DNA of 32,000 nt from Thermosynechococcaceae cyanobacterium MS004 (lineage in GTDB: Bacteria > Cyanobacteriota > Cyanobacteriia > Thermosynechococcales > Thermosynechococcaceae): assembly GCA_022402525.1 (NCBI GenBank), contig JAKRSB010000113.1:1-32000 (forward strand). Direction: 5' to 3'. How positions within the stretch are numbered: position 1 is the stretch's first letter; the number at the start of each line of letters is the position of its first letter. Positions 1-15,830 of this stretch are shown one piece after another. The notes beneath the pieces were generated by a model. It did no database searches and was not told where the DNA came from. It worked only from the letters and a program-made list of their open reading frames with translations. Position numbers and translations under genes: made by a program.

Positions 1-71
1 AGACGAATTCTCAAGGTCTTGTGGACATTATCGCTTAAAAAGCAACAGGTCTTATACACCGCGTCGGATAT

Positions 72-1445
72 ATGGATAGGCGAAATTTCCTGAAAATATT
101 TGGTTTGACACTGGTGGGATCTGTCAATAGTTCCTGTGGCGAAGAATCCCCAAGATATACAGCGACATCCAGCAAGAAGCGCATCGTGGTAATTGGTGCA
201 GGATTGTCCGGCCTTGCTGCTGCCCAAGCATTGCATCGACAAGGACATGAAGTTGTCGTGGTTGAAGCTCGTGAGCGTATCGGTGGTCGAGTTTGGACAA
301 GTTCTAAGTGGACTGATATGCCCCTCGATTTTGGCGCGACATGGATACATGGAACTCAGGGCAATCCGTTAACTGATTTAGCTGAACAAATAAATGCTAA
401 ACGGCTCACAACTAGTTACGACAGGACAGTAACGTACAATACATCGGGACAGCCACTCTCCAAGGCAGAGGAAGTCCGTTTAGAAGATTTCAGGAAGCAA
501 GTGTTTGGGAAGTTGAAAAAGGCTCAGAACAAAGATCCAGATGTCTCGATTCAACAAGCGATCAAACCGTTGATGCGTCAAGTTGACAAATCCTCAGAGT
601 CATACCGTTTCATCAACTTTATTTTGAGTGGTGAGATCGAACAGGAGTATTCGGGAAGCACTGAAAGCCTCTCTGCACAATGGTTTGATAGTGCTCAAGA
701 ATTTGATGGCAATGATGACCTATTCGTTCAAGGATTTAAAGTCATCCCAGAATTTCTAGCCAAAGGGTTACAGATCGAACTGGGTCAGGTCGTGAAAGAA
801 ATTCAATGGCATCAATCGCCTGTTCGGGTGATTACTCAAAAGACCGATTTCCTAGCCGATCGTGTTTTAGTCACTCTACCGCTAGGGGTTTTGCAAGCTG
901 GAAAGGTTCGTTTCACGCCTGAATTACCTCGGAACAAACAGAATGCGATCGCCAAACTGGGCATGGGTGTTCTGAACAAATGCTATCTTCGATTTGCCGA
1001 TGTTTTTTGGGCTGCTAATGTTGATTGGTTAGAGCATATTTCGGCAAGTCATGGTGAGTGGACAGAGTGGGTGAGTTTCAAGCGAGTAGCTAATATGCCC
1101 ATACTGCTAGGATTTAATGCGGCTGATCGGGGAAGAGCGATTGAAGCATGGTCGGACAAACAAATCGTTGCGAGTGCAATGCAAACCTTAAGGACAATCT
1201 ATGGAGTCAGTATTCCTGAACCCATTGACTATCAAATTACCCGTTGGGCAACCGATCCGTTTTCGCTGGGTTCGTATTCATATAATCCTGTTGGTGCAGT
1301 ACCAAAAATGCGTCAAGAACTTGCTGCACCACTCGGAAGGTCTCTATTTTTTGCGGGTGAAGCATCTAATGAGGAGTATTTCGGGACTGCTCATGGTGCA
1401 TATTTATCTGGTCTACGTGCAGCCAAAGAAATCCTGCAAATATAA
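72..1445 (+). CDS. Exported FAD-dependent amine oxidase (flavin monoamine/polyamine oxidase family)
   Basis: 457-aa ORF. Twin-arginine signal MDRRNFLKIFGLTLVG followed by SSCG (possible lipoprotein Cys). Dinucleotide-binding motif VVIGAGLSGLAAA...VVVVEARERIGGR. C-terminal FFAGEA...GTAHGAYLSGLRAA is typical of the amine oxidase fold. Confidence 0.85.
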   Translation: MDRRNFLKIFGLTLVGSVNSSCGEESPRYTATSSKKRIVVIGAGLSGLAAAQALHRQGHEVVVVEARERIGGRVWTSSKWTDMPLDFGATWIHGTQGNPLTDLAEQINAKRLTTSYDRTVTYNTSGQPLSKAEEVRLEDFRKQVFGKLKKAQNKDPDVSIQQAIKPLMRQVDKSSESYRFINFILSGEIEQEYSGSTESLSAQWFDSAQEFDGNDDLFVQGFKVIPEFLAKGLQIELGQVVKEIQWHQSPVRVITQKTDFLADRVLVTLPLGVLQAGKVRFTPELPRNKQNAIAKLGMGVLNKCYLRFADVFWAANVDWLEHISASHGEWTEWVSFKRVANMPILLGFNAADRGRAIEAWSDKQIVASAMQTLRTIYGVSIPEPIDYQITRWATDPFSLGSYSYNPVGAVPKMRQELAAPLGRSLFFAGEASNEEYFGTAHGAYLSGLRAAKEILQI

Positions 1446-1454
1446 TCTAGTGTT

Positions 1455-1542
1455 ACCCAACACCTTTCATGTACGCCGACCGCCGAAAGTTAATCGGCTA
1501 TGATACACAGGTTGTTGGCAGCGGGTGGTAGAAACGTTAGAC
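1455..1542 (+). mobile_element. attC-like imperfect palindrome A (88 bp)
   Basis: Starts 9 nt after the amine oxidase stop. Left end ACCCAAC fits RYYYAAC and right end GTTAGAC fits GTTRRRY. The right arm GCAGCGGGTGG...ACGTTAG is nearly identical to element C. Confidence 0.55.
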
Positions 1543-1940
1543 CTCTGAGATAACTAAGAGGACGCAAGCGGAAAATATTGACAGGAATGAGGCGAAGATA
1601 ATCTTGCGTTTTCGATCTTGACAACCAGAGTTGGCTGTGTTTCGATTTACTCAGGCAGTCGAATATCAATACCTAGATGTTCGTCTCATGGGCATTATCT
1701 CTAGTCCTCAGGTCAATGCATACCCAGTATTTTGGTCTAGCGTTCATTTGAGATGAGGGATTTCATTTCAGGTAAACGCTGGTTCAGCATACTAGATATG
1801 CACTGGTGTGAGGCTTGGAGATAGTGCGCTTGAGACGTTTACCAATAGGTGACAGGCTAGTGGTTTTCCCCGTGGGCGAGAACTTCGATGCTTATCCTGA
1901 TATTCCTTTGCTACAAACCCATGTAGAAAGGAAATTTACT

Positions 1941-2225
1941 ATGAACTCCAAGCAAAGACAAGCAAAGAAGGCTCAACTCATCGGTATCTTTGGTTTGTAC
2001 TGTTGGCATTGTAAGTGTCGCTTCCCTGCCGAGGATCTGACCCTCGACCATCTAGTACCCAAAAGCAAGGGCGGTTCCAATTCTTTAGGGAACTTGTGGT
2101 TAGCTTGTTTCCCGTGCAACAACTCCCGTGGAAACAATTTCTATCCACCCGCACGCTCGTTTGGGCATCTCAGTCAATCTTCAGTCAATGTAGCGAGGAA
2201 AAATGCACAAGCTCTTAATGTTTAA
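1941..2225 (+). CDS. Small stand-alone HNH endonuclease
   Basis: CWHC...LDHLVPKSKGGSNSLGNLWLACFPCNNSRG gives two CxxC knuckles around the H-N-N core. ATG at 1941 is preceded by GAAAGGAAA. The track's TTG start at 1815 adds 42 residues with no recognisable motif. Confidence 0.8.
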   Translation: MNSKQRQAKKAQLIGIFGLYCWHCKCRFPAEDLTLDHLVPKSKGGSNSLGNLWLACFPCNNSRGNNFYPPARSFGHLSQSSVNVARKNAQALNV

Positions 2226-2886
2226 TGATGAGAAACTTCTACGCCGATCTCTAACTCACCGCTCATATGTCAATGAAAATTCTGGGGAAGGTGGAGATAA
2301 CGAGCGCCTAGAGTTTCTTGGTGATGCAATTCTCAATTTCATCAGTGGCGAATACCTTTATCAGGTTCATCCTGAAATGGGAGAAGATGAAATGACAAGA
2401 CGACGAGCAGCACTTGTAGACGAAAAACAACTCGCTAGATTTGCTATTGAAGTTGGATTAGACTTCAGGATGCGACTAGGGCAAGGTGCAATTCGTGAGG
2501 GTGGTTATCAAAATCCAAATCTCCTTAGCAGCACTTTTGAAGCAGTTATTGGGGCTTACTATTTAGATAACAAGCGCGACATTGAAGCACTGCGTCCTTT
2601 AGTAGAACAACTATTTAACTCTGTTCCTGAAGAAGTTATGGTGGTTCGCTCAAATATAGACTCAAAGAATAAGTTTCAGGAACTAGTGCAGGCAAATGGG
2701 GCAAAGACTCCTCCAAAGTATGTCACAGAAAAATTAGGTGGAGCAGATCATGCTCCAGAGTTTTTTTCTAAGGCTTATGTGGATGATAAACTCTATGGTG
2801 AAGGTAAAGGTCGTAGCAAGAAGGATGCAGAAAAACAAGCTGCTGAAGATGCTATAGCCACGCTAAAAAAACGAGGGTTTCTATGA
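2203..2886 (+). CDS. rnc: Ribonuclease III (catalytic domain plus C-terminal dsRBD)
   Basis: LTHRSY...ERLEFLGDAILNF RNase III signature. C-terminal dsRBD (KNKFQELVQ...GEGKGRSKKDAEKQAAEDAI). AGGA lies 4 nt upstream of ATG 2203. The gene overlaps the HNH ORF by 23 nt; an alternative ATG at 2218 gives ATGTTTAA start/stop overlap. Confidence 0.9.
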   Translation: MHKLLMFNDEKLLRRSLTHRSYVNENSGEGGDNERLEFLGDAILNFISGEYLYQVHPEMGEDEMTRRRAALVDEKQLARFAIEVGLDFRMRLGQGAIREGGYQNPNLLSSTFEAVIGAYYLDNKRDIEALRPLVEQLFNSVPEEVMVVRSNIDSKNKFQELVQANGAKTPPKYVTEKLGGADHAPEFFSKAYVDDKLYGEGKGRSKKDAEKQAAEDAIATLKKRGFL

Positions 2887-2896
2887 TGCAGCCGAG

Positions 2897-2983
2897 GGCT
2901 AACAACCGCGCTGCACCGGAACACCTCAAAGCATCAGTTAAGATTCAAAGGTTGTCTGTGTCCGGTGAGGACGACCGTTAGCG
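2897..2983 (+). mobile_element. attC-like imperfect palindrome B (87 bp)
   Basis: Starts 10 nt after the rnc stop. GGCTAAC...GTTAGCG ends pair as GCTAAC/GTTAGC. The inner arm GCACCGGA pairs with TCCGGTG, with a bulged base and an unpaired spacer, as in attC folds. Confidence 0.55.
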
Positions 2984-2998
2984 AGGAAAGCTTTTTCT

Positions 2999-3628
2999 AT
3001 GTTTAACAGACACTCCATTTTGAGCTTTCTTGATAATGCATTTCAGAGCATTGAAATGCCCAATTTTGGCAATGTCAATATTGATTATGTGTCATCACGT
3101 CTATTGGCCTATCGCAGTACAAATAAATGGCTACTGCTATTTAATTCAGTGGTTTGGTGGCCTGCCGCTGAAGGACTTATGGCGATCGTGGAAGCGGTGG
3201 GTACAGGCGTAGTTGGCAGGCAGGGTTTTGATAATGATCGAGCTTTTGTGCCGGGATGCATAGAATTAGATGATGAGGAAAACATTGTCAGTATCCTCGT
3301 TCGAGGAGAAGACATTGATCTCACTGGCTTGGCTATCCAGTCAAACTATGATGTTCAACCGGAATATGGCTTTTGGATATCTGTTGCTCTAGCTGAAAAG
3401 TACAAGGAGAGTTTATTAGCCACACAAACTGAAATTGAGCAATTCATCCCCCCTGACTTTCAGCACTTGCTCACCATTGACGAGTGGGATCATCCAACAT
3501 GGGACATGCCACCGAGTCGGACAGTGGGGTTTCCTCATATTGCGAATGTTTTAGTTGCATCAGATCCGTCACTTTGGATTCCTGTGGAAGCACCTAATAC
3601 GCACTGGTCCCATTGGCATCCAAAATAA
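2999..3628 (+). CDS. Hypothetical protein (209 aa, Trp/His-rich, no motif recognised)
   Basis: Clean ORF that fills the space between attC-like elements B and C. GAGGAAAG lies upstream of the ATG. No domain was recognised by eye. Confidence 0.6.
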   Translation: MFNRHSILSFLDNAFQSIEMPNFGNVNIDYVSSRLLAYRSTNKWLLLFNSVVWWPAAEGLMAIVEAVGTGVVGRQGFDNDRAFVPGCIELDDEENIVSILVRGEDIDLTGLAIQSNYDVQPEYGFWISVALAEKYKESLLATQTEIEQFIPPDFQHLLTIDEWDHPTWDMPPSRTVGFPHIANVLVASDPSLWIPVEAPNTHWSHWHPK

Positions 3629-3637
3629 ATCTGTCAT

Positions 3638-3739
3638 GCCTAACAAGCCGTCTGCACACCGACCTATAAAATCGTTGATTGAAGCCTTGCTGATTGAAGC
3701 CAGCAGCTTTTTAGCAGCGGGTGAGGCATGACGTTACAC
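3638..3739 (+). mobile_element. attC-like imperfect palindrome C (102 bp)
   Basis: Starts 9 nt after the stop at 3626-3628. Left end GCCTAAC fits RYYYAAC. Right end GTTACAC is a near match to GTTRRRY. Left arm TGCACACCGACC resembles element A TGTACGCCGACC, and right arm GCAGCGGGTGAGG resembles A and B. Confidence 0.55.
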
Positions 3740-3766
3740 TACAAAACTAACGATGACAAAATAAAG

Positions 3767-3892
3767 ATGGCAAACACAGACGCCTATGAAGACAAGGTTG
3801 CTGGCGTAGTCGGCGATGCAATGGACAAAGTATGGAAAAGCATTATGAGTAAACTAGCCGCTAGCAATGTCTCAGGTATTGCGTTTCTCTAA
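3767..3892 (+). CDS. Possible 41-aa small ORF (MANTDAYEDKVAGVVGDAMDKVWKSIMSKLAASNVSGIAFL)
   Basis: My own translation; it falls below the ORF-track length cutoff. It lies just after element C and has no following attC-like element. There is no SD and no recognisable family. Confidence 0.2.
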   Translation: MANTDAYEDKVAGVVGDAMDKVWKSIMSKLAASNVSGIAFL

Positions 3893-3986
3893 ATCTGCTT
3901 TCTCGTCCTCACTCAGTTTGATGGGGACTGCGGATAGTCGGGGCATCTTTTGAACCCGTTTAATCTACGACCTCTCAATGGTAAGC

Positions 3987-4577
3987 TCACTTCAGACAAG
4001 CTGTATCAGGAAGATCTATCCCCTCAGCAGCGGACTTTTCATCGGGGGTTGCTGCATTCGACAATTCTTGGATCAACACCAGTAAGGTTTCCGCTACCGA
4101 TTGAGGTTGGGTTGGATTTAGTACAACATACTGATGAGCCGCATCGGTGTCAGCCAAAATCATTTGAATATCTTCAATCTCCCAGGCATCCGGGTGATCA
4201 GCATGAGTAATGCCAATCACCATCGGAATTTGTGTGCGCTGCTGCATAAAAGCTTTGATGCTACGAGCCGCACGCATACTGCCAGGAAGATGGGCAGGAA
4301 CTAGCAGAATATAACCATGGGCACCCTGAATCAGAATATCCCACATAAAGTCAAAGCGAGATTGTCCAGGGGTTCCATAAATTTGTACCCACATTTCATC
4401 CCCTAGGGTGATTCGACCAAAATCCATTGCAACGGTTGTGCCTGATTTCATCTCAGCCGTTTCATCCGTGGGCCTGCGATCAGTATCGACAACCTCTATT
4501 TCGCTGATGGAGCGAATAAACGTTGTTTTTCCTGCACCAACAGGGCCAGTCACAACAATTTTAAGGAGATTTCGCAT
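3987..4577 (-). CDS. Small Ras-superfamily GTPase, CvnD/MglA-like (COG2229-type)
   Basis: P-loop GPVGAGKTT, switch I TTVAMDFG, and G3 YGTPGQSRFDFMWD (GTPGQ instead of DxxGQ, as in CvnD-type proteins). The G4 position reads ITHAD instead of NKxD. Confidence 0.85.
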   Translation of the reverse strand: MRNLLKIVVTGPVGAGKTTFIRSISEIEVVDTDRRPTDETAEMKSGTTVAMDFGRITLGDEMWVQIYGTPGQSRFDFMWDILIQGAHGYILLVPAHLPGSMRAARSIKAFMQQRTQIPMVIGITHADHPDAWEIEDIQMILADTDAAHQYVVLNPTQPQSVAETLLVLIQELSNAATPDEKSAAEGIDLPDTACLK

Positions 4578-4637
4578 CGTTTATCGCTTAGTTCTAGGAG
4601 AAGACAAAGGCTGTGTTCAACTGGCCAAAGGTGTTGG

Positions 4638-5108
4638 TTAACCTACGGGGTCAAACTCAAATACATCTTGATGACTACCTCGCAAAACAGATTCAGTCTG
4701 ACGCCCCCGTAACCGCTTACCAGATACCGTCTCCAAGACACCCTGTACGGCACCCAGCGTAAAGCCACATACCCGGCTCGAACCAAGTTCCTCTCCAGAA
4801 GAGCAGACGGTTTCACGGGTATAAACTTTATAACCTTCACCCTTAGGCTCAATTTTGTCCAAAATCAAAAGGCGAGTACCCTCTTTACCTAAGGCAAAAG
4901 CAACTTTACTGGTGATGTCTTCAAGGGATAGAGATGAATTATCTAGACCAATAGATGCAGCTAGATTTCGGCCACGGGCACGACCGGCGGCAACCAAAGC
5001 AATTTGGGTGGTCTTATCGCCCAGGGCTTCCTCAATTCCTGTAATAATGGCCTTGAGACAAATGATACTGCTAAAGTCTCCCAACTCAGGGCGTAATTCT
5101 GTAGTCAT
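4638..5108 (-). CDS. V4R (4-vinyl reductase/Bet3-like) domain protein, tentative
   Basis: 156 aa. The C-terminal pattern ETVCSSGEELGSSRVCGFTLGAVQGVLETVSG...ESVLRGSHQDVFEF resembles the V4R pattern (C..a......p.C.f..G...G......E..C..G...C.F), with the last two Cys lost. It sits between the Roadblock and GTPase genes. Confidence 0.5.
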   Translation of the reverse strand: MTTELRPELGDFSSIICLKAIITGIEEALGDKTTQIALVAAGRARGRNLAASIGLDNSSLSLEDITSKVAFALGKEGTRLLILDKIEPKGEGYKVYTRETVCSSGEELGSSRVCGFTLGAVQGVLETVSGKRLRGRQTESVLRGSHQDVFEFDPVG

Positions 5109-5161
5109 GACTTACTATTTTGCTCCAAAATCTTTAAGTGTATTTAGCGCTGAGGATTGTT

Positions 5162-5554
5162 TTAAACTGCGGCAAAAGATGAACTAGAGCCCATTGCTGC
5201 ACTTACTTTTTCGCTCATTTGCTTAATTTGTAAAAACAGCATTCCTTGCTTGGCATCTTTACTGGCCAGAGTGAGTAGCATTGCATCATCTCCACAGCTA
5301 GTGAGTACTCCGTAACCAGCATCTCCTTGTACAAAGACTCGATCAATGTTTCCACGAGCCAATTCTTTTCCGATTCGTTCGCCCAGAGAAAGCATTGCTG
5401 CGGACATGGCTGCAGTTTTTTCTTCATCCATCGCATTGGGCAAAACCGATGCTAAGGGCAAGCCATCGGGCGTAACAACCGCTGCGCCCTGAATATCAGG
5501 GCTGCTGACAACGTAACTTTGAAGCAAGCCTTGTAAAGCGGATAAACTGGACAT
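5162..5554 (-). CDS. Roadblock/LC7 (MglB/CvnB-like) domain protein
   Basis: 130 aa. SPDIQGAAVVTPDGLPLASVLP...DRVFVQGDAGYGVLTSCGDDAMLLTLAS is the typical Roadblock/LC7 pattern. Confidence 0.85.
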   Translation of the reverse strand: MSSLSALQGLLQSYVVSSPDIQGAAVVTPDGLPLASVLPNAMDEEKTAAMSAAMLSLGERIGKELARGNIDRVFVQGDAGYGVLTSCGDDAMLLTLASKDAKQGMLFLQIKQMSEKVSAAMGSSSSFAAV

Positions 5555-5907
5555 AGTGCATCTCCATGAAGATAATTCAAAGTCAAGCGAGAAAGCTATT
5601 GCTTATCTTGGTGTGACTGGCATTTTAAAAATCATAAATTTACTAAAGTGTGCCAACTTCACAGCGCAATTAAATTATTTAGCTTTACCCTAGGATGCCC
5701 ATCTCTGTAATGTAATAGACATCATTAAAATATATTCTTATGATCATATTTATTTTTTTTATTTTTATATCGAAATTTATAAATAATTTATTATAAATAA
5801 AGAGATGTGAGTCATGACTGCGATCTGAGTCAGACAGATAAAACAATCAAGACTTCTTCTTTAATTAAAGAGGAAATTAATTATTAAATTCTCATATATC
5901 AAATCAA

Positions 5908-6759
5908 CTAGCGAATTGATTTTAGAACTGATGTCAACCTTTTAAGAAGTGTTAGATTAAGAGTCGAGCTTTCTGACTTTGACGTTTTCAATTCTTTTTG
6001 TAGTGTTGTTGGTTTTTCTGGGCTTGAAGTTAGAGCTTGATCTGTGGGCTGAGTTAAAGATGCTGGAATTTCTTCAATTAAGCCGACTTGCATCAGTCTA
6101 TAACAAGCTTTGCGGGTCTCAAGTAGATCTGAATTCAGCCGCTGTGCAATAACACGCACAGAATTCTGCGGTGCGATTTGCATCCAGGCATTCCATTCTA
6201 AGTCTGAGAGTTTTAGTATCGGGGGTTCGGTAACAATCTTGGTGAAGATGCTATCCGGCAACGGGAGATTTTTATGATTTTGAGTTTGAAGCTCAACTCT
6301 ACGCAGTCCTTCTATGGCTGCATCCATGCCACCTTTACTCATCCCAGTCATTTCATCAAAAGGCGGAGATACGTTGGGAGCAAAGCGAAATTGACCTGAC
6401 TGAAGCGCGAATAAGTCATACAGTCCAACTTGGAGCTGTTTCCGAAAAACAGTCGCAAGCTGAGATGCAGAGATATATGCTCGTTTTTTCAGAAAGATTC
6501 CGATGGGTTCATTTAACGAAAATAGGGTATTTATCTGTGCAATCACTTCTTGATCAATGTCTTGACAGTCCATTAGCAACTGCTTTAAAAGATGTTGTTT
6601 TTCAGGAGAAAGTGTGGCGACAATCCGTCCTTGAAAAAACCAAATCCTATAAATACCATTTTGAGACCAGATGGAGAGTTGTCCGGTCTTGGCAGCACGT
6701 TCAAACATTTGCAATATATCTGCCAAGGAAACCTCAGACAAATCACCTAGCATGGCCAT
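5908..6759 (-). CDS. DUF4388/PATAN-domain protein
   Basis: N-terminal GDLSEVSLADILQMFERAAKTGQLSIW...IWFFQGRIVA matches the DUF4388 (PatA N-terminal, PATAN) signature. The C-terminus is a low-complexity Ser/Thr/Lys tail. Confidence 0.7.
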   Translation of the reverse strand: MAMLGDLSEVSLADILQMFERAAKTGQLSIWSQNGIYRIWFFQGRIVATLSPEKQHLLKQLLMDCQDIDQEVIAQINTLFSLNEPIGIFLKKRAYISASQLATVFRKQLQVGLYDLFALQSGQFRFAPNVSPPFDEMTGMSKGGMDAAIEGLRRVELQTQNHKNLPLPDSIFTKIVTEPPILKLSDLEWNAWMQIAPQNSVRVIAQRLNSDLLETRKACYRLMQVGLIEEIPASLTQPTDQALTSSPEKPTTLQKELKTSKSESSTLNLTLLKRLTSVLKSIR

Positions 6760-6832
6760 AATTAAATGCTCTCTACCCTATCGCACTCAATAAACTATCT
6801 TTCAAGCAAGAGGAGTTTAGTCTCTATATACA

Positions 6833-6868
6833 CTGAAATTAACGTTGAAATTAATGCTGAAATTAATT
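6833..6868. promoter_or_regulatory. Three 12-bp direct repeats (yTGAAATTAAyk) upstream of the PATAN gene
   Basis: CTGAAATTAACG TTGAAATTAATG CTGAAATTAATT, 74-109 bp upstream of the start at 6759, inside a 435-bp AT-rich divergent spacer. Confidence 0.3.
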
Positions 6869-7194
6869 CAAAAATCAAATACTAAAATAATTGAACTTGA
6901 AACATATATACCGTACAAAATGTTCATTTTTTATTGTCTAATGACAATATCTTAGATTTCAAAGAGGAGTAAAAAAAAGACTCGTTCATCTCATCAACTC
7001 TAGATCGTCAAAGACAGAAAGAAAACCTTCTTCAAGGATCTTTAAGCACACTGAGCGCACGAAAACCTTATCTGGTGTAGATTGAACAACGCAGATGCAA
7101 CAAACTATGTGACAAATTTTTTATATGAATTTTTCTAGAGCTATCGACTACCTAGAGCACTAGAGGTCAGGCACCATCCTCATAGTGACTCTAC

Positions 7195-7461
7195 ATGAAT
7201 TTCCATCAGGCTGCACCAGCTTATGTGGACGAAATAAATAGAACGAAAGCTATCCGTATCGTGCCCAGGAAAACAACCATTCCTGAACAGCTTGCAATCA
7301 ATTATTTGAATCTTTATGATAGATTTTATCTATGCTGTTTTGACCAGCATTGCTGGAACCCTTCTGTGTCTGGGGTTAATACTTTAGGAGTATATCAACT
7401 TTGCGATGAATACAGCTACTTAGAGGCAAAATTAAGCTTTCTCAGACTTACTGCTGAGTAA
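7195..7461 (+). CDS. Hypothetical 88-aa protein (Cys-rich), doubtful
   Basis: ORF only. No SD and no recognisable motif, in an AT-rich context. Confidence 0.3.
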   Translation: MNFHQAAPAYVDEINRTKAIRIVPRKTTIPEQLAINYLNLYDRFYLCCFDQHCWNPSVSGVNTLGVYQLCDEYSYLEAKLSFLRLTAE

Positions 7462-7937
7462 TAATTCAGCTAAGAGATCCTTTGACGAAGCCTCTAAATT
7501 TATTAAAGTCCTTGATGTGAAAGGCTTTTGCTTCTGAATATAGTTACTTAGCGCAAAGTAGGAATACATCCAATGCTCTTATTATCCAGTGAGTAAACAA
7601 TGTGGCCTGTACAATAGCTACAGTTCGATAGGTGACTCAGATTGCCATCCCAGCTTTGCGCTGCGCTCGCTAAAAGCTTGCTTGAGAACTTTCTAACATC
7701 TTGCAGTCACCCCCTAAGTTCCCCAAAATGGGGGACTTTATCCATTTTTAAGCTCCCCAGAATGAGAGGTCGGGGGTTGATGATGGCGGACGAACTTTCA
7801 AAACAACCTCTTAGCGGAGACCTAGGCTCAGCTTCTTTGGTCTATACAGGGCATCCGCGTAGACCTGTCCAAAGCCCATGCTTGGATTTTGTCGGAGTAG
7901 TGAACCAGCCAGAGAAATTCGAGGGGGCGTAAGATAA

Positions 7938-8114
7938 CGGCGAATTGCTCAGATCGCTGAGGCAAGCCTGACGACGGCGCGGCGCTGGGAAGTCCTGAAC
8001 AGACATCCGCTATTCACAGGCGGTTGCCCGAATTGTGGTAAGGCGATCGCAGCAGAGATGTTCGTCAACTATGACTGCAAGCAATGTGGCTGGCAGTATG
8101 ACCTCAACCGTTGA
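7938..8114 (+). pseudogene. Possible 5'-truncated zinc-ribbon ORF at the low-GC/high-GC junction
   Basis: High-GC reading frame ...ARRWEVLNRHPLFTGGCPNCGKAIAAEMFVNYDCKQCGWQYDLNR* with CxxC...CxxC. It is closed upstream by TAA at 7935. There is no ATG/GTG/TTG before the zinc ribbon, only CTG at 7968. Confidence 0.25.
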
Positions 8115-13655: not shown

Positions 13656-15086
13656 ATGTCTACCCAATACCTTTCTGTGAAAGAAAGCTCTGAAATTCTC
13701 AACTGTTCAGAGCAGTACGTTCGCCAACTACTCCGGCATGGTGAAATCAGCGGCGAAAGGATTAGCAGCCGCTGGATTGTAGCATCAGAGTCTGTGCATG
13801 AGTACCGTTGTAAGGGAGAGGATGCCAATCTAGGCGTTCCCGATCATGGGCGACGATCCTTCAGTAAACCAGACTTCAAAGCCTTAAGTTTTTTCTCTGG
13901 CTGCATGGGTCTAGACTTGGGACTAGAAAAAGAAGGAATCAAGGTATTGCTTGCCTGCGAGATTGATGCAGCCGCACGAAAAACAATAGAGACGAATCGG
14001 CCGGATATGGCTCTGATTGGTGATATTAGGGACTATTCAGCGATAGAAATTCGAGAAAAAGCAGGGTTGAGTTCGACCGATGAGATTGATGTCATTGTTG
14101 GTGGTCCGCCATGCCAAGCTTTTAGCAGTGCAGGTAAACGTCAAGGATTCAATGATGATCGCGGCAATGTCTTTTTAACATTCATCGATTTAATCACTGA
14201 ACTTAAACCCAGATTTGCCGTAATTGAAAATGTTCGAGGATTACTATCGGCTCCACTGAAGCACAGACCCCATGAAATGAGAGGGAAGAATTTTCCATCC
14301 TTATCTCAGGATGAACAACGAGGAGGGGCACTGCTTTTTATTACCCGAAGACTCAAGCAGGCAGGATATAGTATTTCGTTTAACTTATACAATTCCGCTA
14401 ATTTTGGATCACCTCAACAGCGAGAAAGAGTTGTTATTACTTGTAGCCGTGATGGCGAAAAACTTCCCTATCTTATGCCAACTCATGCTGAGAAAGGTTT
14501 GTATGGGCTTCCACAATGGCGGACATTGAGAGAAGCTCTGGAAGGACTGCCCAAAGACGGACATCATTTTGTCAAGTTTCCTGAGAAGCGACTCAAATAC
14601 TACAAGCTTCTGAAATCTGGGCAATATTGGCGAGATTTGCCAGCAGAGTTACACCAAGAGGCGCTTGGGGCTTCGTATCATGCAGGAGGTGGAAAAACTG
14701 GTTTTTATCGGAGGTTAGCTTGGGATAAACCTTCTCCAACACTGGTCACTCATCCAGCCATGCCCGCAACCGATCTGGCACATCCAGAAGAGGATAGACC
14801 ACTCAGTATTGAAGAGTACAAGCGCATCCAAGAGTTTCCTGATGATTGGGCGATCGCGGGAAGTTTACTGGATCAGTATCGGCAAGTTGGAAATGCTGTG
14901 CCCTGTTCTCTGGGAAGGGCGATCGCTAGGATGTTGTTAACTCATCGTTCGGGGGAAACACCGATCATCTATCCAGACTTTCCCTACTCGCGTTATCACA
15001 AGACAGATGATGTAAGTTGGACGATTGAAACTTTAGGTGATCTTGAAGAATCCTCGGAAACACAGCTTTCTTTGAATTTAGTTTGA
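13656..15086 (+). CDS. DNA (cytosine-5) methyltransferase with N-terminal excisionase/MerR-type HTH
   Basis: HTH YLSVKESSEILNCSEQYVRQLLRHGEISGERISSRWIV. Motif I FFSGCMGLDLG, motif IV GGPPCQAFS, motif VI AVIENVRGL, motif VIII QQRERVVI, motif X QVGNAVP. Confidence 0.92.
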   Translation: MSTQYLSVKESSEILNCSEQYVRQLLRHGEISGERISSRWIVASESVHEYRCKGEDANLGVPDHGRRSFSKPDFKALSFFSGCMGLDLGLEKEGIKVLLACEIDAAARKTIETNRPDMALIGDIRDYSAIEIREKAGLSSTDEIDVIVGGPPCQAFSSAGKRQGFNDDRGNVFLTFIDLITELKPRFAVIENVRGLLSAPLKHRPHEMRGKNFPSLSQDEQRGGALLFITRRLKQAGYSISFNLYNSANFGSPQQRERVVITCSRDGEKLPYLMPTHAEKGLYGLPQWRTLREALEGLPKDGHHFVKFPEKRLKYYKLLKSGQYWRDLPAELHQEALGASYHAGGGKTGFYRRLAWDKPSPTLVTHPAMPATDLAHPEEDRPLSIEEYKRIQEFPDDWAIAGSLLDQYRQVGNAVPCSLGRAIARMLLTHRSGETPIIYPDFPYSRYHKTDDVSWTIETLGDLEESSETQLSLNLV

Positions 15087-15830
15087 CGGCTCAGACAAAA
15101 ATTGCCAAGGATTGTTTACCTCCACCGCTAAAGCATGTGGATTTTCTGTCAAAATCTGCTGAACAAACATGGCAAAGTTTTCTTCGGAAAAACGAGTCGT
15201 TCCATACTTATCATTGAAGTAAGACCATCGATATGATCCTGTCCTAGCATCAACTCTGTACCACTTTTCGATGGGTTGGCTGATTCTAACCCTAGAAGAC
15301 GAGCTATTTTCTGAATTACTGCGGTTTTTCACCTGAAAGAGAGAACCATCAACATTACAAAAATCGACATGGCGAACGGACTCGCCCCAGCAGCAATACC
15401 AGCCATATTCATCTAACTGTTCAGCCAGAAATTCTTCGAGGAGTAATCCCTGAATATTTTCGGCTGACATGGACAGCCTGTGAGCATACTGGATCTGCTC
15501 AAGATGATCTGATGTTAACCGTGTCAATCTGGCATTGATGATTGTATTAACAATTGGATCAGCAACTGTTTTTGGTGGTTGCGAGATTCGTCTTGAAATT
15601 CTGTTCTCATAGCTATCACTGTACTTTTTCAGCCAAGACTGAGCTAAGTCTTCCAGCGTAGTGCCTTTCAGGGCTGGAGAAAGCCCTGGATTTCTGTAAC
15701 AGGCAGTTAAAATCGTGCGATGAGCTTCTAGGAATGGCTGGCCATGCTGGGAAAAAGCATTTTGAAAGATTTGTAAAAATAGTTCTTCAGAACTAGATGT
15801 ACTAATGATTTCATCAAATGTAACAGACAT
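15078..15830 (-). CDS. Putative type II restriction endonuclease (PD-(D/E)xK-like), cognate to the adjacent methyltransferase
   Basis: 250 aa, convergent with the MTase and overlapping it by 9 nt. Candidate catalytic pattern LLEEFLAE...HVDFCNVDGSLFQVKNRS (E...D-x10-QxK). The family assignment was not verified. Confidence 0.5.
   Translation of the reverse strand: MSVTFDEIISTSSSEELFLQIFQNAFSQHGQPFLEAHRTILTACYRNPGLSPALKGTTLEDLAQSWLKKYSDSYENRISRRISQPPKTVADPIVNTIINARLTRLTSDHLEQIQYAHRLSMSAENIQGLLLEEFLAEQLDEYGWYCCWGESVRHVDFCNVDGSLFQVKNRSNSENSSSSRVRISQPIEKWYRVDARTGSYRWSYFNDKYGTTRFSEENFAMFVQQILTENPHALAVEVNNPWQFLSEPSN

Follow-up and report, generated by a model that had tools for sequence, protein, structure and literature searches.

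The 32,000-nt stretch of DNA analyzed here (contig JAKRSB010000113.1 of Thermosynechococcaceae cyanobacterium MS004, positions 1 to 32,000; in the following, the window) carries, at positions 1543-2886, a gene for a small HNH endonuclease followed by a gene for ribonuclease III (RNase III; rnc), the pair being preceded by a leader of approximately 400 nt. Comparison with homologous loci, designated here by L numbers, indicated that this region belongs to a type of operon that is conserved in cyanobacteria and has three parts, namely a structured leader, an exchangeable gene position (the slot) occupied by a nuclease-type gene, and rnc. The enzymes encoded are ordinary members of their families; what appears to be new is the combination of a conserved hairpin, the slot, and RNase III, which is sometimes also arranged as a cassette. 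The architecture suggests that RNase III may act on the leader of its own transcript and thereby on the expression of the nuclease encoded in the slot.

Slot genes, rnc, and their conservation

The HNH gene extends on the plus strand from the ATG at 1941 to the TAA at 2223-2225 (1941-2225) and encodes a protein of 94 aa, for which the Pfam families HNH_5 (6e-12) and HNH (2e-10) were identified. Among 18 homologues, the zinc-binding cysteines C21, C24, C56, and C59, as well as H37, N51, and N60, were found to be invariant, and D36 nearly so. The presence of the zinc site formed by four cysteines and of the catalytic D-H…N…N residues places the protein among the HNH (beta-beta-alpha-Me) nucleases. 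Judged by sequence, the HNH domains most similar to its core are those of Cas9, IscB, and group II intron proteins; the IscB model was aligned only over its positions 191-238 of 314, with 38.6 bits against a cutoff of 175. The downstream gene (2203-2886, plus strand) encodes a full-length class-1 RNase III of 227 aa and was assigned to the NCBIfam equivalog TIGR02191 with 214.8 bits (cutoff 166). Both features defining class 1 were found, namely a catalytic domain (Pfam Ribonucleas_3_3 at 5e-30) possessing the ERLEFLGD-type signature and a second acidic cluster (NERLEFLGD and FEAVIGA are readable in the translation), and a C-terminal double-stranded RNA-binding domain (dsRBD; Pfam dsrm at 6e-18, residues 155-221). 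The two genes overlap by 23 nt, with the HNH stop codon lying inside the rnc frame, and the rnc start at 2203 is the one conserved among homologues. Hence, the open reading frames (ORFs), Pfam, and TIGR02191 bear out the original prediction, made from the letters of the window alone, of a 94-aa HNH protein gene overlapping a complete RNase III gene. The scan of positions 1543-1940 for ORFs returned no convincing candidate, in agreement with the non-coding leader of about 400 nt that had been described ahead of the pair. Ratios of nonsynonymous to synonymous substitution rates (dN/dS) of 0.18 for the HNH core and 0.09 for rnc indicated purifying selection on both genes.

To the extent covered by a survey of one genome per species, with family sizes representing lower bounds from pattern-based scans, close relatives of the HNH protein were few, and all of them were cyanobacterial proteins of 75-94 aa. 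They are encoded at 22 genome loci, including those of Leptolyngbya, Stenomitos, Kaiparowitsia, Phormidesmis, Myxacorys, Acaryochloris, Chamaesiphon, Phormidium, Calothrix, Scytonema, Nostoc, and Prochloron. At each of these 22 loci, the RNase III gene was located directly downstream of the HNH gene, and no other neighbor from the window was common to them. The same HNH–rnc arrangement was detected at approximately 20 metagenome loci, so that the neighborhood survey proposed as a check of the original prediction showed the pairing not to be unique to this genome. Scanning of metagenomes with the RNase III sequence revealed 77 further loci, many of them featuring the HNH gene and the leader hairpin described below. 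Across the 22 genome loci, identity values ranged between 72% and 95% for RNase III and between 51% and 78% for the HNH protein, and the distance between the two genes varied from −16 to +272 nt. Given this variation, the translational coupling suggested by the overlap in the window is not a conserved property of the pair. Likewise, the notion that this rnc represents an odd extra copy was not upheld, since the RNase III belongs to a highly conserved cyanobacterial orthogroup whose members are also encountered without an HNH gene in ordinary chromosomal contexts. Orthologues of 81-100% identity alone account for more than 120 clusters in cyanobacteria.

The same leader and rnc were found to flank different genes in the slot, encoding either the HNH protein, an NYN protein, or a protein referred to here as protein X (all-alpha, with an R-N-x4-H motif). 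The breakpoints of this exchange are clean; outside the leader (83%) and rnc (85.5%), for example, L014 (HNH) and L046 (NYN) share no homology. The slot proteins of L046, L059, and L080 matched PF01936 at 1.8e-18, 2.5e-18, and 4e-22, respectively (67-80 bits, cutoff 24.2), and are therefore NYN proteins. In L080, the NYN gene accompanies an RNase III gene whose product is 54% identical to that of the window, and the promoter as well as a GUCUCAG-based hairpin (z = −6.8) are kept. Protein X, with a length of 216-245 aa, occupies the slot of L096/L065, L034, L075, and L105/L106; members of the family were located at 363-1016 in L096, 369-1019 in L065, 208-945 in L034, 2501-3160 in L105, 740-1765 in L107, and 766-1434 in L108. 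The X gene begins with the first HNH codons and is followed by a remnant corresponding to HNH residues 58-75, which indicates that X was inserted into an HNH gene. In L096, L034, and L105, it replaces HNH codons ~7-58, the breakpoints corresponding to positions 1959 and 2115 of the window, and in L034 it overlaps the rnc start. The motif F-R-N-x3-A-H was invariant in 23 sequences of protein X, and its AlphaFold model is all-alpha, with a predicted local distance difference test score (pLDDT) of 84.7. At the level of its motif, X may represent an undescribed HEPN-like effector domain. The alignments indicate that the slot is swapped among three unrelated nuclease-type genes, X being only putatively a nuclease. 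Protein X was also encountered as the C-terminal part or as a neighbor of restriction-endonuclease-like proteins (JGI annotation "type III restriction enzyme"; match to the end of NCBIfam BPTD_3080).

In addition to replacement, the slot gene shows repeated decay. Remnants of the HNH gene are located directly upstream of rnc in L023, L024, L075, and L096, and the Nostoc loci L016 and L017 possess interrupted HNH genes (pseudogenes) behind an intact hairpin. In L024 and L025, the rnc orthologues have no slot gene, and the 74-147 nt upstream of them contain no hairpin. Since the hairpin is absent where the slot gene has been lost entirely, it appears to be linked no less closely to the slot gene than to rnc. 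In a rough neighbor-joining tree of RNase III, hairpin and slot occur across the entire clade of at least 71% identity and also in the 54% outgroup, with the slot-less lineages nested within. The simplest reading of this distribution is an old arrangement in which the slot has repeatedly decayed and been replaced, and the slot gene itself is proposed to encode an exchangeable, frequently lost, and probably harmful nuclease. A deviating structure was observed in L015 (Prochloron sp., OZ240666.1), where the HNH core and the C-terminal, dsRNA-binding portion of RNase III are encoded by a single ORF of 166 aa (5001-5501). This copy possesses no RNase III catalytic domain, and a GC-rich hairpin stands in place of the usual one; either it is a pseudogene that arose by deletion, or it encodes a fusion of HNH and dsRBD.

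Structure of the leader

Both TTGACA hexamers and the 7-bp inverted repeat that the original prediction had listed for the leader are present, and homologues conserve only the second hexamer (1618-1623). It forms the −35 element of a predicted promoter (1618-1646, plus strand), which continues with a 17-nt spacer ending in TG (1638-1639) and the −10 element TTCGAT (1641-1646); transcription is predicted to start at approximately 1653-1655. The promoter call is based on conservation and not on a generic promoter scan, which skipped it, its −10 element having no A at position 2 as required by the scan. The distance between the −35 element and the base of the downstream hairpin amounts to 64-67 nt in Leptolyngbya-type leaders and 80-81 nt in those of the Nostoc type, and is fixed in most of the 37 distinct loci. 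Ahead of the promoter, the 5'-terminal part of the unit (1537-1617, plus strand) is kept only in the closest relatives (L003, L004, L026, L029, L002, and L005). It contains the inverted repeat (ACGCAAG, 1562-1568; CTTGCGT, 1603-1609) followed by TTTTCG, as well as the non-conserved TTGACA at 1578-1583.

The dominant feature of the leader is a long hairpin (1682-1837, plus strand) of 156 nt with ~62-65 pairs and conserved 1x1 mismatches at regular spacing, whose base, CGUCUCA/UGAGACG, is invariant. Folding of positions 1640-1880 yielded −99 kcal/mol (z = −7.2). The hairpin was found at 45 loci, 39 of them distinct, and is single-copy at each; a gapless repeat finder did not detect it. Across orders, 14 of the 22 genome loci shared 73-87% identity with the leader DNA over 200-400 nt, and each matching segment aligned with its reverse complement as well. 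In the Nostoc loci, no similarity to the leader could be detected at the sequence level, yet a hairpin of 186-223 nt occupies the equivalent position. The hairpins of Nostoc, JS3, and L080 diverge in sequence and keep GUCUCA…GAGAC at their base, in the form GUCUCAG…CUGAGAC in Nostoc and L080. Within the lower stem, sequence is conserved as well as structure; in the upper stem, the sequence varies and the pairs are kept.

Applied to an alignment of 14 leader sequences, RNAalifold returned 82 pairs, and 94% of the alignment cells were paired, as compared to at most 42% with slid partners. Compensatory changes were present in 20 of the 82 pairs (14 of the 62 hairpin pairs among them), as opposed to 3-7 in the slid controls; the observed number was reached by none of 500 shuffles. 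The plus strand is more stable in 36 of the 39 distinct hairpins, with 6-16 G.U pairs on the plus strand versus 1-7 on the minus strand, which points to a constraint on the transcript and not only on the DNA. Taken together, this covariation indicates that the leader encodes a conserved structured RNA. A structured or antisense RNA had been supposed to arise from this region: the structured RNA holds, with a duplex that forms in cis, whereas no promoter or RNA in antisense orientation was found to be conserved. In the Rfam database, no match at gathering score was obtained for the whole window, and allowing E-values up to 10 over 1440-3000 produced only chance-level matches to miRNA precursors and small nucleolar RNAs. 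Approximately two helical turns of duplex suffice as a substrate for bacterial RNase III, and the leader duplex is long enough for this. The hairpin is the presumed substrate of the enzyme encoded downstream, and as a stable stem-loop in the predicted 5' untranslated region of rnc (1682-1837) it provides the structural feature that characterizes an rncO-type leader. At the DNA level, the base CGTCTC…GAGACG (1682-1688 and 1831-1837) corresponds to an inverted pair of BsmBI/Esp3I recognition sites, with GTCTC in the Nostoc and L080 versions; this likeness is probably coincidental to a constraint from RNA or protein recognition. In L009 (Phormidium lacuna, ~4550-5000), the hairpin is shortened to 95 nt, and ~250 nt of extra sequence separate it from the ribosome-binding-site stem.

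The hairpin is predicted to be enclosed by a further helix (helix 1 of the RNAalifold consensus, 97% paired), in which the 5' arm GAAUAUCA (1661-1668, plus strand), located near the predicted transcript start, pairs with UGAUAUUC (1898-1905). Changes in this helix are one-sided only (U-A to U-G). Its 3' arm lies within the region 1898-1935 (plus strand), which also holds a stem over the Shine-Dalgarno (SD) sequence of the HNH gene; the 3' arm overlaps the outer arm of that stem. The SD stem (helix 5) pairs AUUCC (1902-1906) with GGAAU (1930-1934) and, inside these, GCUAC with GUAG, and it features compensatory changes in three of six pairs. The SD sequence AAGGAAA (1928-1934) is predicted to be mostly paired, with an unpaired probability of 0.2-0.36 in most homologues. 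Comparable closing helices between the 5' end and the region beside the ribosome-binding-site stem were found in the Nostoc type (GACAGCA/UGCUGUU) and in L080. Between the long hairpin and the ribosome-binding-site region, a small variable hairpin (1858-1888, plus strand) was read from the alignment. Its stem is kept in most homologues despite varying sequence; being absent from the RNAalifold consensus, it represents weaker evidence.

Cassette context of the unit

Three related elements of 88-102 nt were identified in the window, each following a co-directional gene (amine oxidase, rnc, and DUF7003, respectively). The first of these attC-like sites, e1 (1455-1542, plus strand; R'' ACCCAAC at 1455-1461, R' GTTAGAC at 1536-1542), forms the end of the amine oxidase unit and places a putative cassette boundary at G|TT (1536/1537). 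Site e2 (2897-2983, plus strand; R'' GGCTAAC at 2897-2903, R' GTTAGCG at 2977-2983) closes the HNH–rnc unit, and site e3 (3638-3739, plus strand), recognized by alignment and consensus fold, follows the DUF7003 gene (2999-3628), which would constitute a neighboring cassette. The assignment to attC is based on the comparative alignment and consensus fold of ten such elements, which share TAAC/GTTA boxes, spacers, and paired inner arms, with compensatory changes in 11 of 20 pairs; folds of the single flanking sequences were no more stable than shuffles. Compared to the patterns RYYYAAC/GTTRRRY, the R''/R' boxes are exact in e1 and near in e2 and e3, and an extra unpaired G in L'' is readable in L003. 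The bracketing of the unit by attC-like elements that the original prediction had proposed is thereby substantiated.

Sites on both sides of the unit were found in the window, L003, L004, and L045, and an upstream one also in L041. Elements of the e2 type follow rnc in L003, L004/L028, L023, L029, L031, L034, and L045, and are truncated in L001, L026, and L032. The homology of the window with L003, L004, L002, and L026 begins exactly at the GTTAG of the upstream site, and the flanking genes differ. Thus, the unit possesses an attC site at its 3' end and lies between attC sites among differing neighbors; an array beside an integrase gene and attI was not found. With no integrase in the 32-kb window, the array resembles a CALIN-type cluster in a cyanobacterial chromosome, and the cassette form is real and confined to part of the family. 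Accordingly, the mobile cassette of the original prediction stands as far as the window and its closest relatives are concerned, which are bounded by attC, but it does not extend to the Nostoc copies, which have no attC, and no copy was found on plasmids or viral contigs.

The low GC content and the absence of HIP1 sites (GCGATCGC), which had also been ascribed to the unit, are correct as such and are common to the whole block 1-8042. The GC content is 0.433 for the unit and 0.434 for the block, as compared to 0.494 for the window and 0.514 for its remaining part. Of 37 HIP1 sites in the window, a single one lies in the block (at 945) and the other 36 outside of it. Low GC content and HIP1 scarcity are therefore properties of this ~8-kb block and not specific to the HNH–rnc unit. 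The block, which holds the cassette array and a gene cluster at 3987-6759, may have been acquired horizontally or represent a segment that is distinct in some other way.

Possible function and competing explanations

The comparison establishes the anatomy of the operon, its conservation, the structure at the RNA level, the exchange of slot genes, and the attC context; cleavage by RNase III, the direction of control, toxicity, and a role in conflict are inferred. On this basis, the following course of events can be envisaged. A sigma-70-type promoter would drive transcription of a 5' leader of ~290 nt, which would fold into a hairpin of 62-85 bp on the GUCUCA/UGAGAC base, closed by the helix between the 5' end and the region preceding the slot. 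The RNase III of the operon would then cut the leader duplex of its own mRNA, as the E. coli enzyme does at rncO, so that the message for the slot nuclease and rnc, in amount or translatability, would fall at high RNase III activity and rise at low activity. Since the ribosome-binding site of the slot gene lies in a stem sharing nucleotides with the closing helix, processing could also alter translation of the slot gene. In this way, RNase III would restrain the slot nuclease, and the module would serve for addiction or as a guard. The chances are about even that RNase III activity feeds back through leader cleavage on both rnc and an exchangeable, probably toxic nuclease, and that the whole constitutes an accessory module of the conflict type, the latter being the less certain part. 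An accessory role of this kind is suggested because the hairpin is lost together with the slot gene, because the slot exchanges and often decays, and because the unit, equipped with a promoter of its own, is able to reside within an attC array. The exchange of three unrelated nuclease-type genes in the slot and the repeated decay of the HNH gene lend indirect support to a conflict module, and a conflict or addiction role is plausible. Going further, the operon might be an undescribed immune or addiction system, in which RNase III continuously cuts a decoy hairpin and thereby silences the slot effector, and in which loss, inhibition, or dsRNA saturation of RNase III (e.g., during phage infection) leads to a build-up of uncut message and to production of the effector, which would then kill or arrest the cell or destroy invader nucleic acid, one clade moving the unit as a promoter-bearing integron cassette. 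This extended proposal is put forward tentatively, and we regard it as rather improbable in its entirety.

Several observations weigh against the explanation proposed here. The RNase III forms a highly conserved orthogroup with a broadly vertical tree and may simply be the housekeeping enzyme. The assignment of protein X to HEPN is unconfirmed, as no match in Pfam, NCBIfam, or PADLOC and no significant fold match in the PDB were obtained (Csm6 and AbiV at E > 1). Among known defense systems, PADLOC reported only a generic PtuB similarity for the HNH protein and nothing for RNase III, DUF7003, or protein X. The module was not found in the plasmid collection or in viral contigs; in the latter, two exact 19-nt matches to a leader motif are due to chance, with no hairpin or rnc nearby, and HNH relatives reached 34-48% identity at most. 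When SD accessibility was simulated for leaders containing or lacking the 5' arm, a weak and inconsistent change resulted, amounting to a weak trend in the Nostoc type, L105, and L080, and to none in the Leptolyngbya type. In view of this outcome, no direction, repressing or activating, is claimed for the switch. With respect to mobility, no integron integrase was present in the 32-kb window and no tyrosine recombinase among its ORFs, and the Nostoc copies, which have no attC, indicate that cassette mobility is not a general property.

The most serious competitor is a housekeeping RNA-processing operon, in which the enzyme would be the main RNase III, the hairpin an rncO-like operator, and the slot protein a cooperating enzyme of RNA maturation or decay that has undergone non-orthologous displacement (HNH, NYN, X) and has no role in conflict. 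The strong conservation of the orthogroup (dN/dS of rnc, 0.09; >120 clusters of at least 81% identity), the roughly vertical distribution of RNase III across the cyanobacterial tree among ordinary chromosomal neighbors, and the well-known autoregulation of rnc are in line with such an operon. NYN proteins are, moreover, predicted RNases (Pfam PF01936), as X would be if it were a HEPN protein. It is difficult to reconcile with a housekeeping function, however, that the slot gene has repeatedly been pseudogenized or deleted, that the hairpin vanishes with the slot gene while rnc stays, and that the unit occurs in an attC array with its own promoter. The HNH protein is, in addition, by sequence of the DNA-cutting type of Cas9, IscB, and group II introns, and X is also located at the C-terminal end of restriction-endonuclease-like proteins. 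A part in a core RNA-maturation pathway is hence the less likely reading compared to an accessory conflict-type module, and we consider the housekeeping operon as such to be possible and on balance doubtful.

Three further explanations were given very little weight. The small, stand-alone HNH protein, its patchy distribution, and the degenerate copies and remnants resembling a cycle of gain, decay, and loss could suggest a selfish free-standing homing endonuclease inserted upstream of rnc, with the leader as its expression signal and the link to rnc as a target-site preference. Such an origin is most improbable, given that the close HNH family resides at one type of locus only (22 of 22 genomes) and is under purifying selection. 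There is no intron or intein and no second copy was seen, so that the residence expected of a homing endonuclease is not present, and the unrelated upstream flanks provide no second homology arm. NYN or X instead of HNH can accompany the same leader and rnc, and the leader itself equals the coding DNA in its degree of conservation and has its structure on the RNA strand. This strand preference likewise makes it highly unlikely that the palindrome acts as DNA, be it as a recombination site, a repeat resembling miniature inverted-repeat transposable elements, or a cruciform targeted by the HNH enzyme. An imperfect palindrome of 156 bp does adjoin a DNA-type nuclease in a region that holds recombination sites of folded DNA (attC), but in 36 of 39 hairpins the sense RNA owes a markedly higher stability than that of the antisense strand to its G.U pairs. 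The element, moreover, occurs once per locus, keeps a fixed spacing downstream of the conserved promoter and upstream of the ribosome-binding site, and is retained with NYN and X variants, which are not HNH enzymes. Finally, the hairpin could be the precursor of small RNAs diced by RNase III, the duplexes acting in trans as regulators or as guides of the slot nuclease; it resembles eukaryotic hairpin precursors in shape, in length, and in the regularity of its mismatches, the chance-level Rfam matches are to miRNA precursors, and the lower stem is conserved in sequence too. A trans-acting duplex nevertheless seems hardly credible, because the sequence of the upper stem is free to vary with the pairs kept, which argues against a conserved trans target, because the slot proteins possess no recognizable guide-binding domain (the 94-aa HNH protein comprises only the catalytic core), and because no complementary target was seen in the window.

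Comparison with described systems sets the operon apart from each of them. Autoregulation of RNase III by cutting its own transcript has been established for E. coli, S. coelicolor, and S. aureus (PMC3386247), and rncO of the E. coli rnc-era-recO operon, as well as the corresponding elements of S. coelicolor absB and S. aureus rnc, resembles the cyanobacterial leader in providing a stem-loop in the rnc transcript placed for self-cleavage (PMC3386247). In contrast to rncO, the cyanobacterial duplex is three to four times longer (62-85 bp) and features conserved mismatches and the invariant GUCUCA/UGAGAC base. Moreover, leader and rnc are separated by a nuclease gene whose ribosome-binding site is embedded in a conserved stem and whose loss is accompanied by that of the hairpin. 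No sequence or covariance-model match connected the leader to any Rfam family, rncO being assumed to be among the families covered. By analogy, the leader would thus behave like an rncO-type operator, and it belongs to no described RNA family.

In B. subtilis, RNase III is essential only through its silencing of toxin genes, according to Durand 2012 as cited in PMC10989914. The proposal made here resembles the type I toxin-antitoxin systems txpA and yonT of that organism, insofar as RNase III keeps a harmful gene product low by destroying a double-stranded region of its mRNA, so that the product would be set free upon loss of RNase III (Durand 2012, cited in PMC10989914). Unlike those systems, the duplex is here formed in cis by the hairpin and not by an antisense RNA, rnc resides in the same operon, and the putative toxins are soluble nuclease-type proteins of 75-270 aa and not small membrane peptides, so that the operon does not qualify as a type I system. 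A cyanobacterial HEPN-RNase III-dsRBD fusion was previously interpreted as a "two-headed" defense RNase (Anantharaman et al. 2013, PMC3710099). In that protein, a second nuclease domain is physically joined to a full RNase III, and the X–rnc pair (R-N-x4-H) may represent the same association; the fusion differs in being one protein, and the 2013 report contains no leader hairpin, HNH or NYN variants, or attC. Type II CRISPR-Cas9 and IscB share with the operon an HNH catalytic core, RNase III, and a structured RNA. The likeness is limited to the catalytic core, and a link to CRISPR or IscB was rejected, since neither a RuvC domain nor guide-binding domains, a CRISPR array, or a match to tracrRNA or omega-RNA was found.

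Integrons and attC sites are known from cyanobacteria (PMC4889954, PMC8352920), and defense cassettes from integrons (bioRxiv 10.1101/2024.07.02.601719). The unit matches promoter-bearing integron cassettes in its R''/L''…L'/R' attC bounds, its location in an array of at least three sites, its own promoter, and its differing neighbors. It differs from them in that there is no integrase within 32 kb, that the unit is long (1.44 kb) and contains two genes, that rnc derives from a conserved chromosomal orthogroup, and that many homologous loci (Nostoc, Calothrix, Acaryochloris, and others) are free of attC. A description of a long hairpin combined with an exchangeable nuclease slot and RNase III was not found in the literature, the nearest case being the HEPN-RNase III fusion of 2013; the assertion in the original prediction that no system of this architecture had been described is consistent with this outcome and with the results from Rfam and PADLOC.

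If the proposed feedback is true, a universal RNA-processing enzyme would report its own activity by means of an RNA decoy and thereby control a second, exchangeable nuclease, which would join RNase III autoregulation, toxin and defense modules with swappable effectors, and integron cassettes. Independently of this, the operon already points to what one of the multiple RNase III genes of cyanobacteria, which are unexplained, may be doing. The conserved RNA element of ~290 nt has no Rfam match, and its predicted cleavage and switching are directly testable. Moreover, the operon represents a rare case of the same genes occurring as an ordinary chromosomal locus and between attC sites, which bears on the origin of integron cassettes. 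Should the conflict reading fail, the leader would in any case constitute an RNase III operator that is new and uncommonly elaborate.

Further observations

A paralogue of the HNH protein (49-51% identity) is encoded on three Nostocales conjugative plasmids, among them L103 (AP018310.1; 2992-3252, with 3366-6210) and L104 (NZ_CP117771.1). There, the gene is located upstream of genes for a 231-aa protein without family assignment, a DUF1822 protein, and a CHAT-TPR protein, with neither RNase III nor a hairpin (z = −0.9); this looks like a different, uncharacterized cluster of the conflict type.

No tRNA or tmRNA genes were found in the window. On its minus strand, the region 3987-6759 encodes a small GTPase-like protein (3987-4577), an ORF without family assignment (4638-5108), a Roadblock/LC7 protein (5162-5554), and a DUF4388 protein (5908-6759), together representing an MglA/MglB-like set with a very AT-rich spacer (GC content of 0.25-0.29) at ~5551-6000. 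Farther downstream (13656-15830), a gene for a C-5 cytosine DNA methyltransferase (13656-15086) converges on one for a SinI-type restriction endonuclease (15078-15830, minus strand), the two forming a type II restriction-modification pair.

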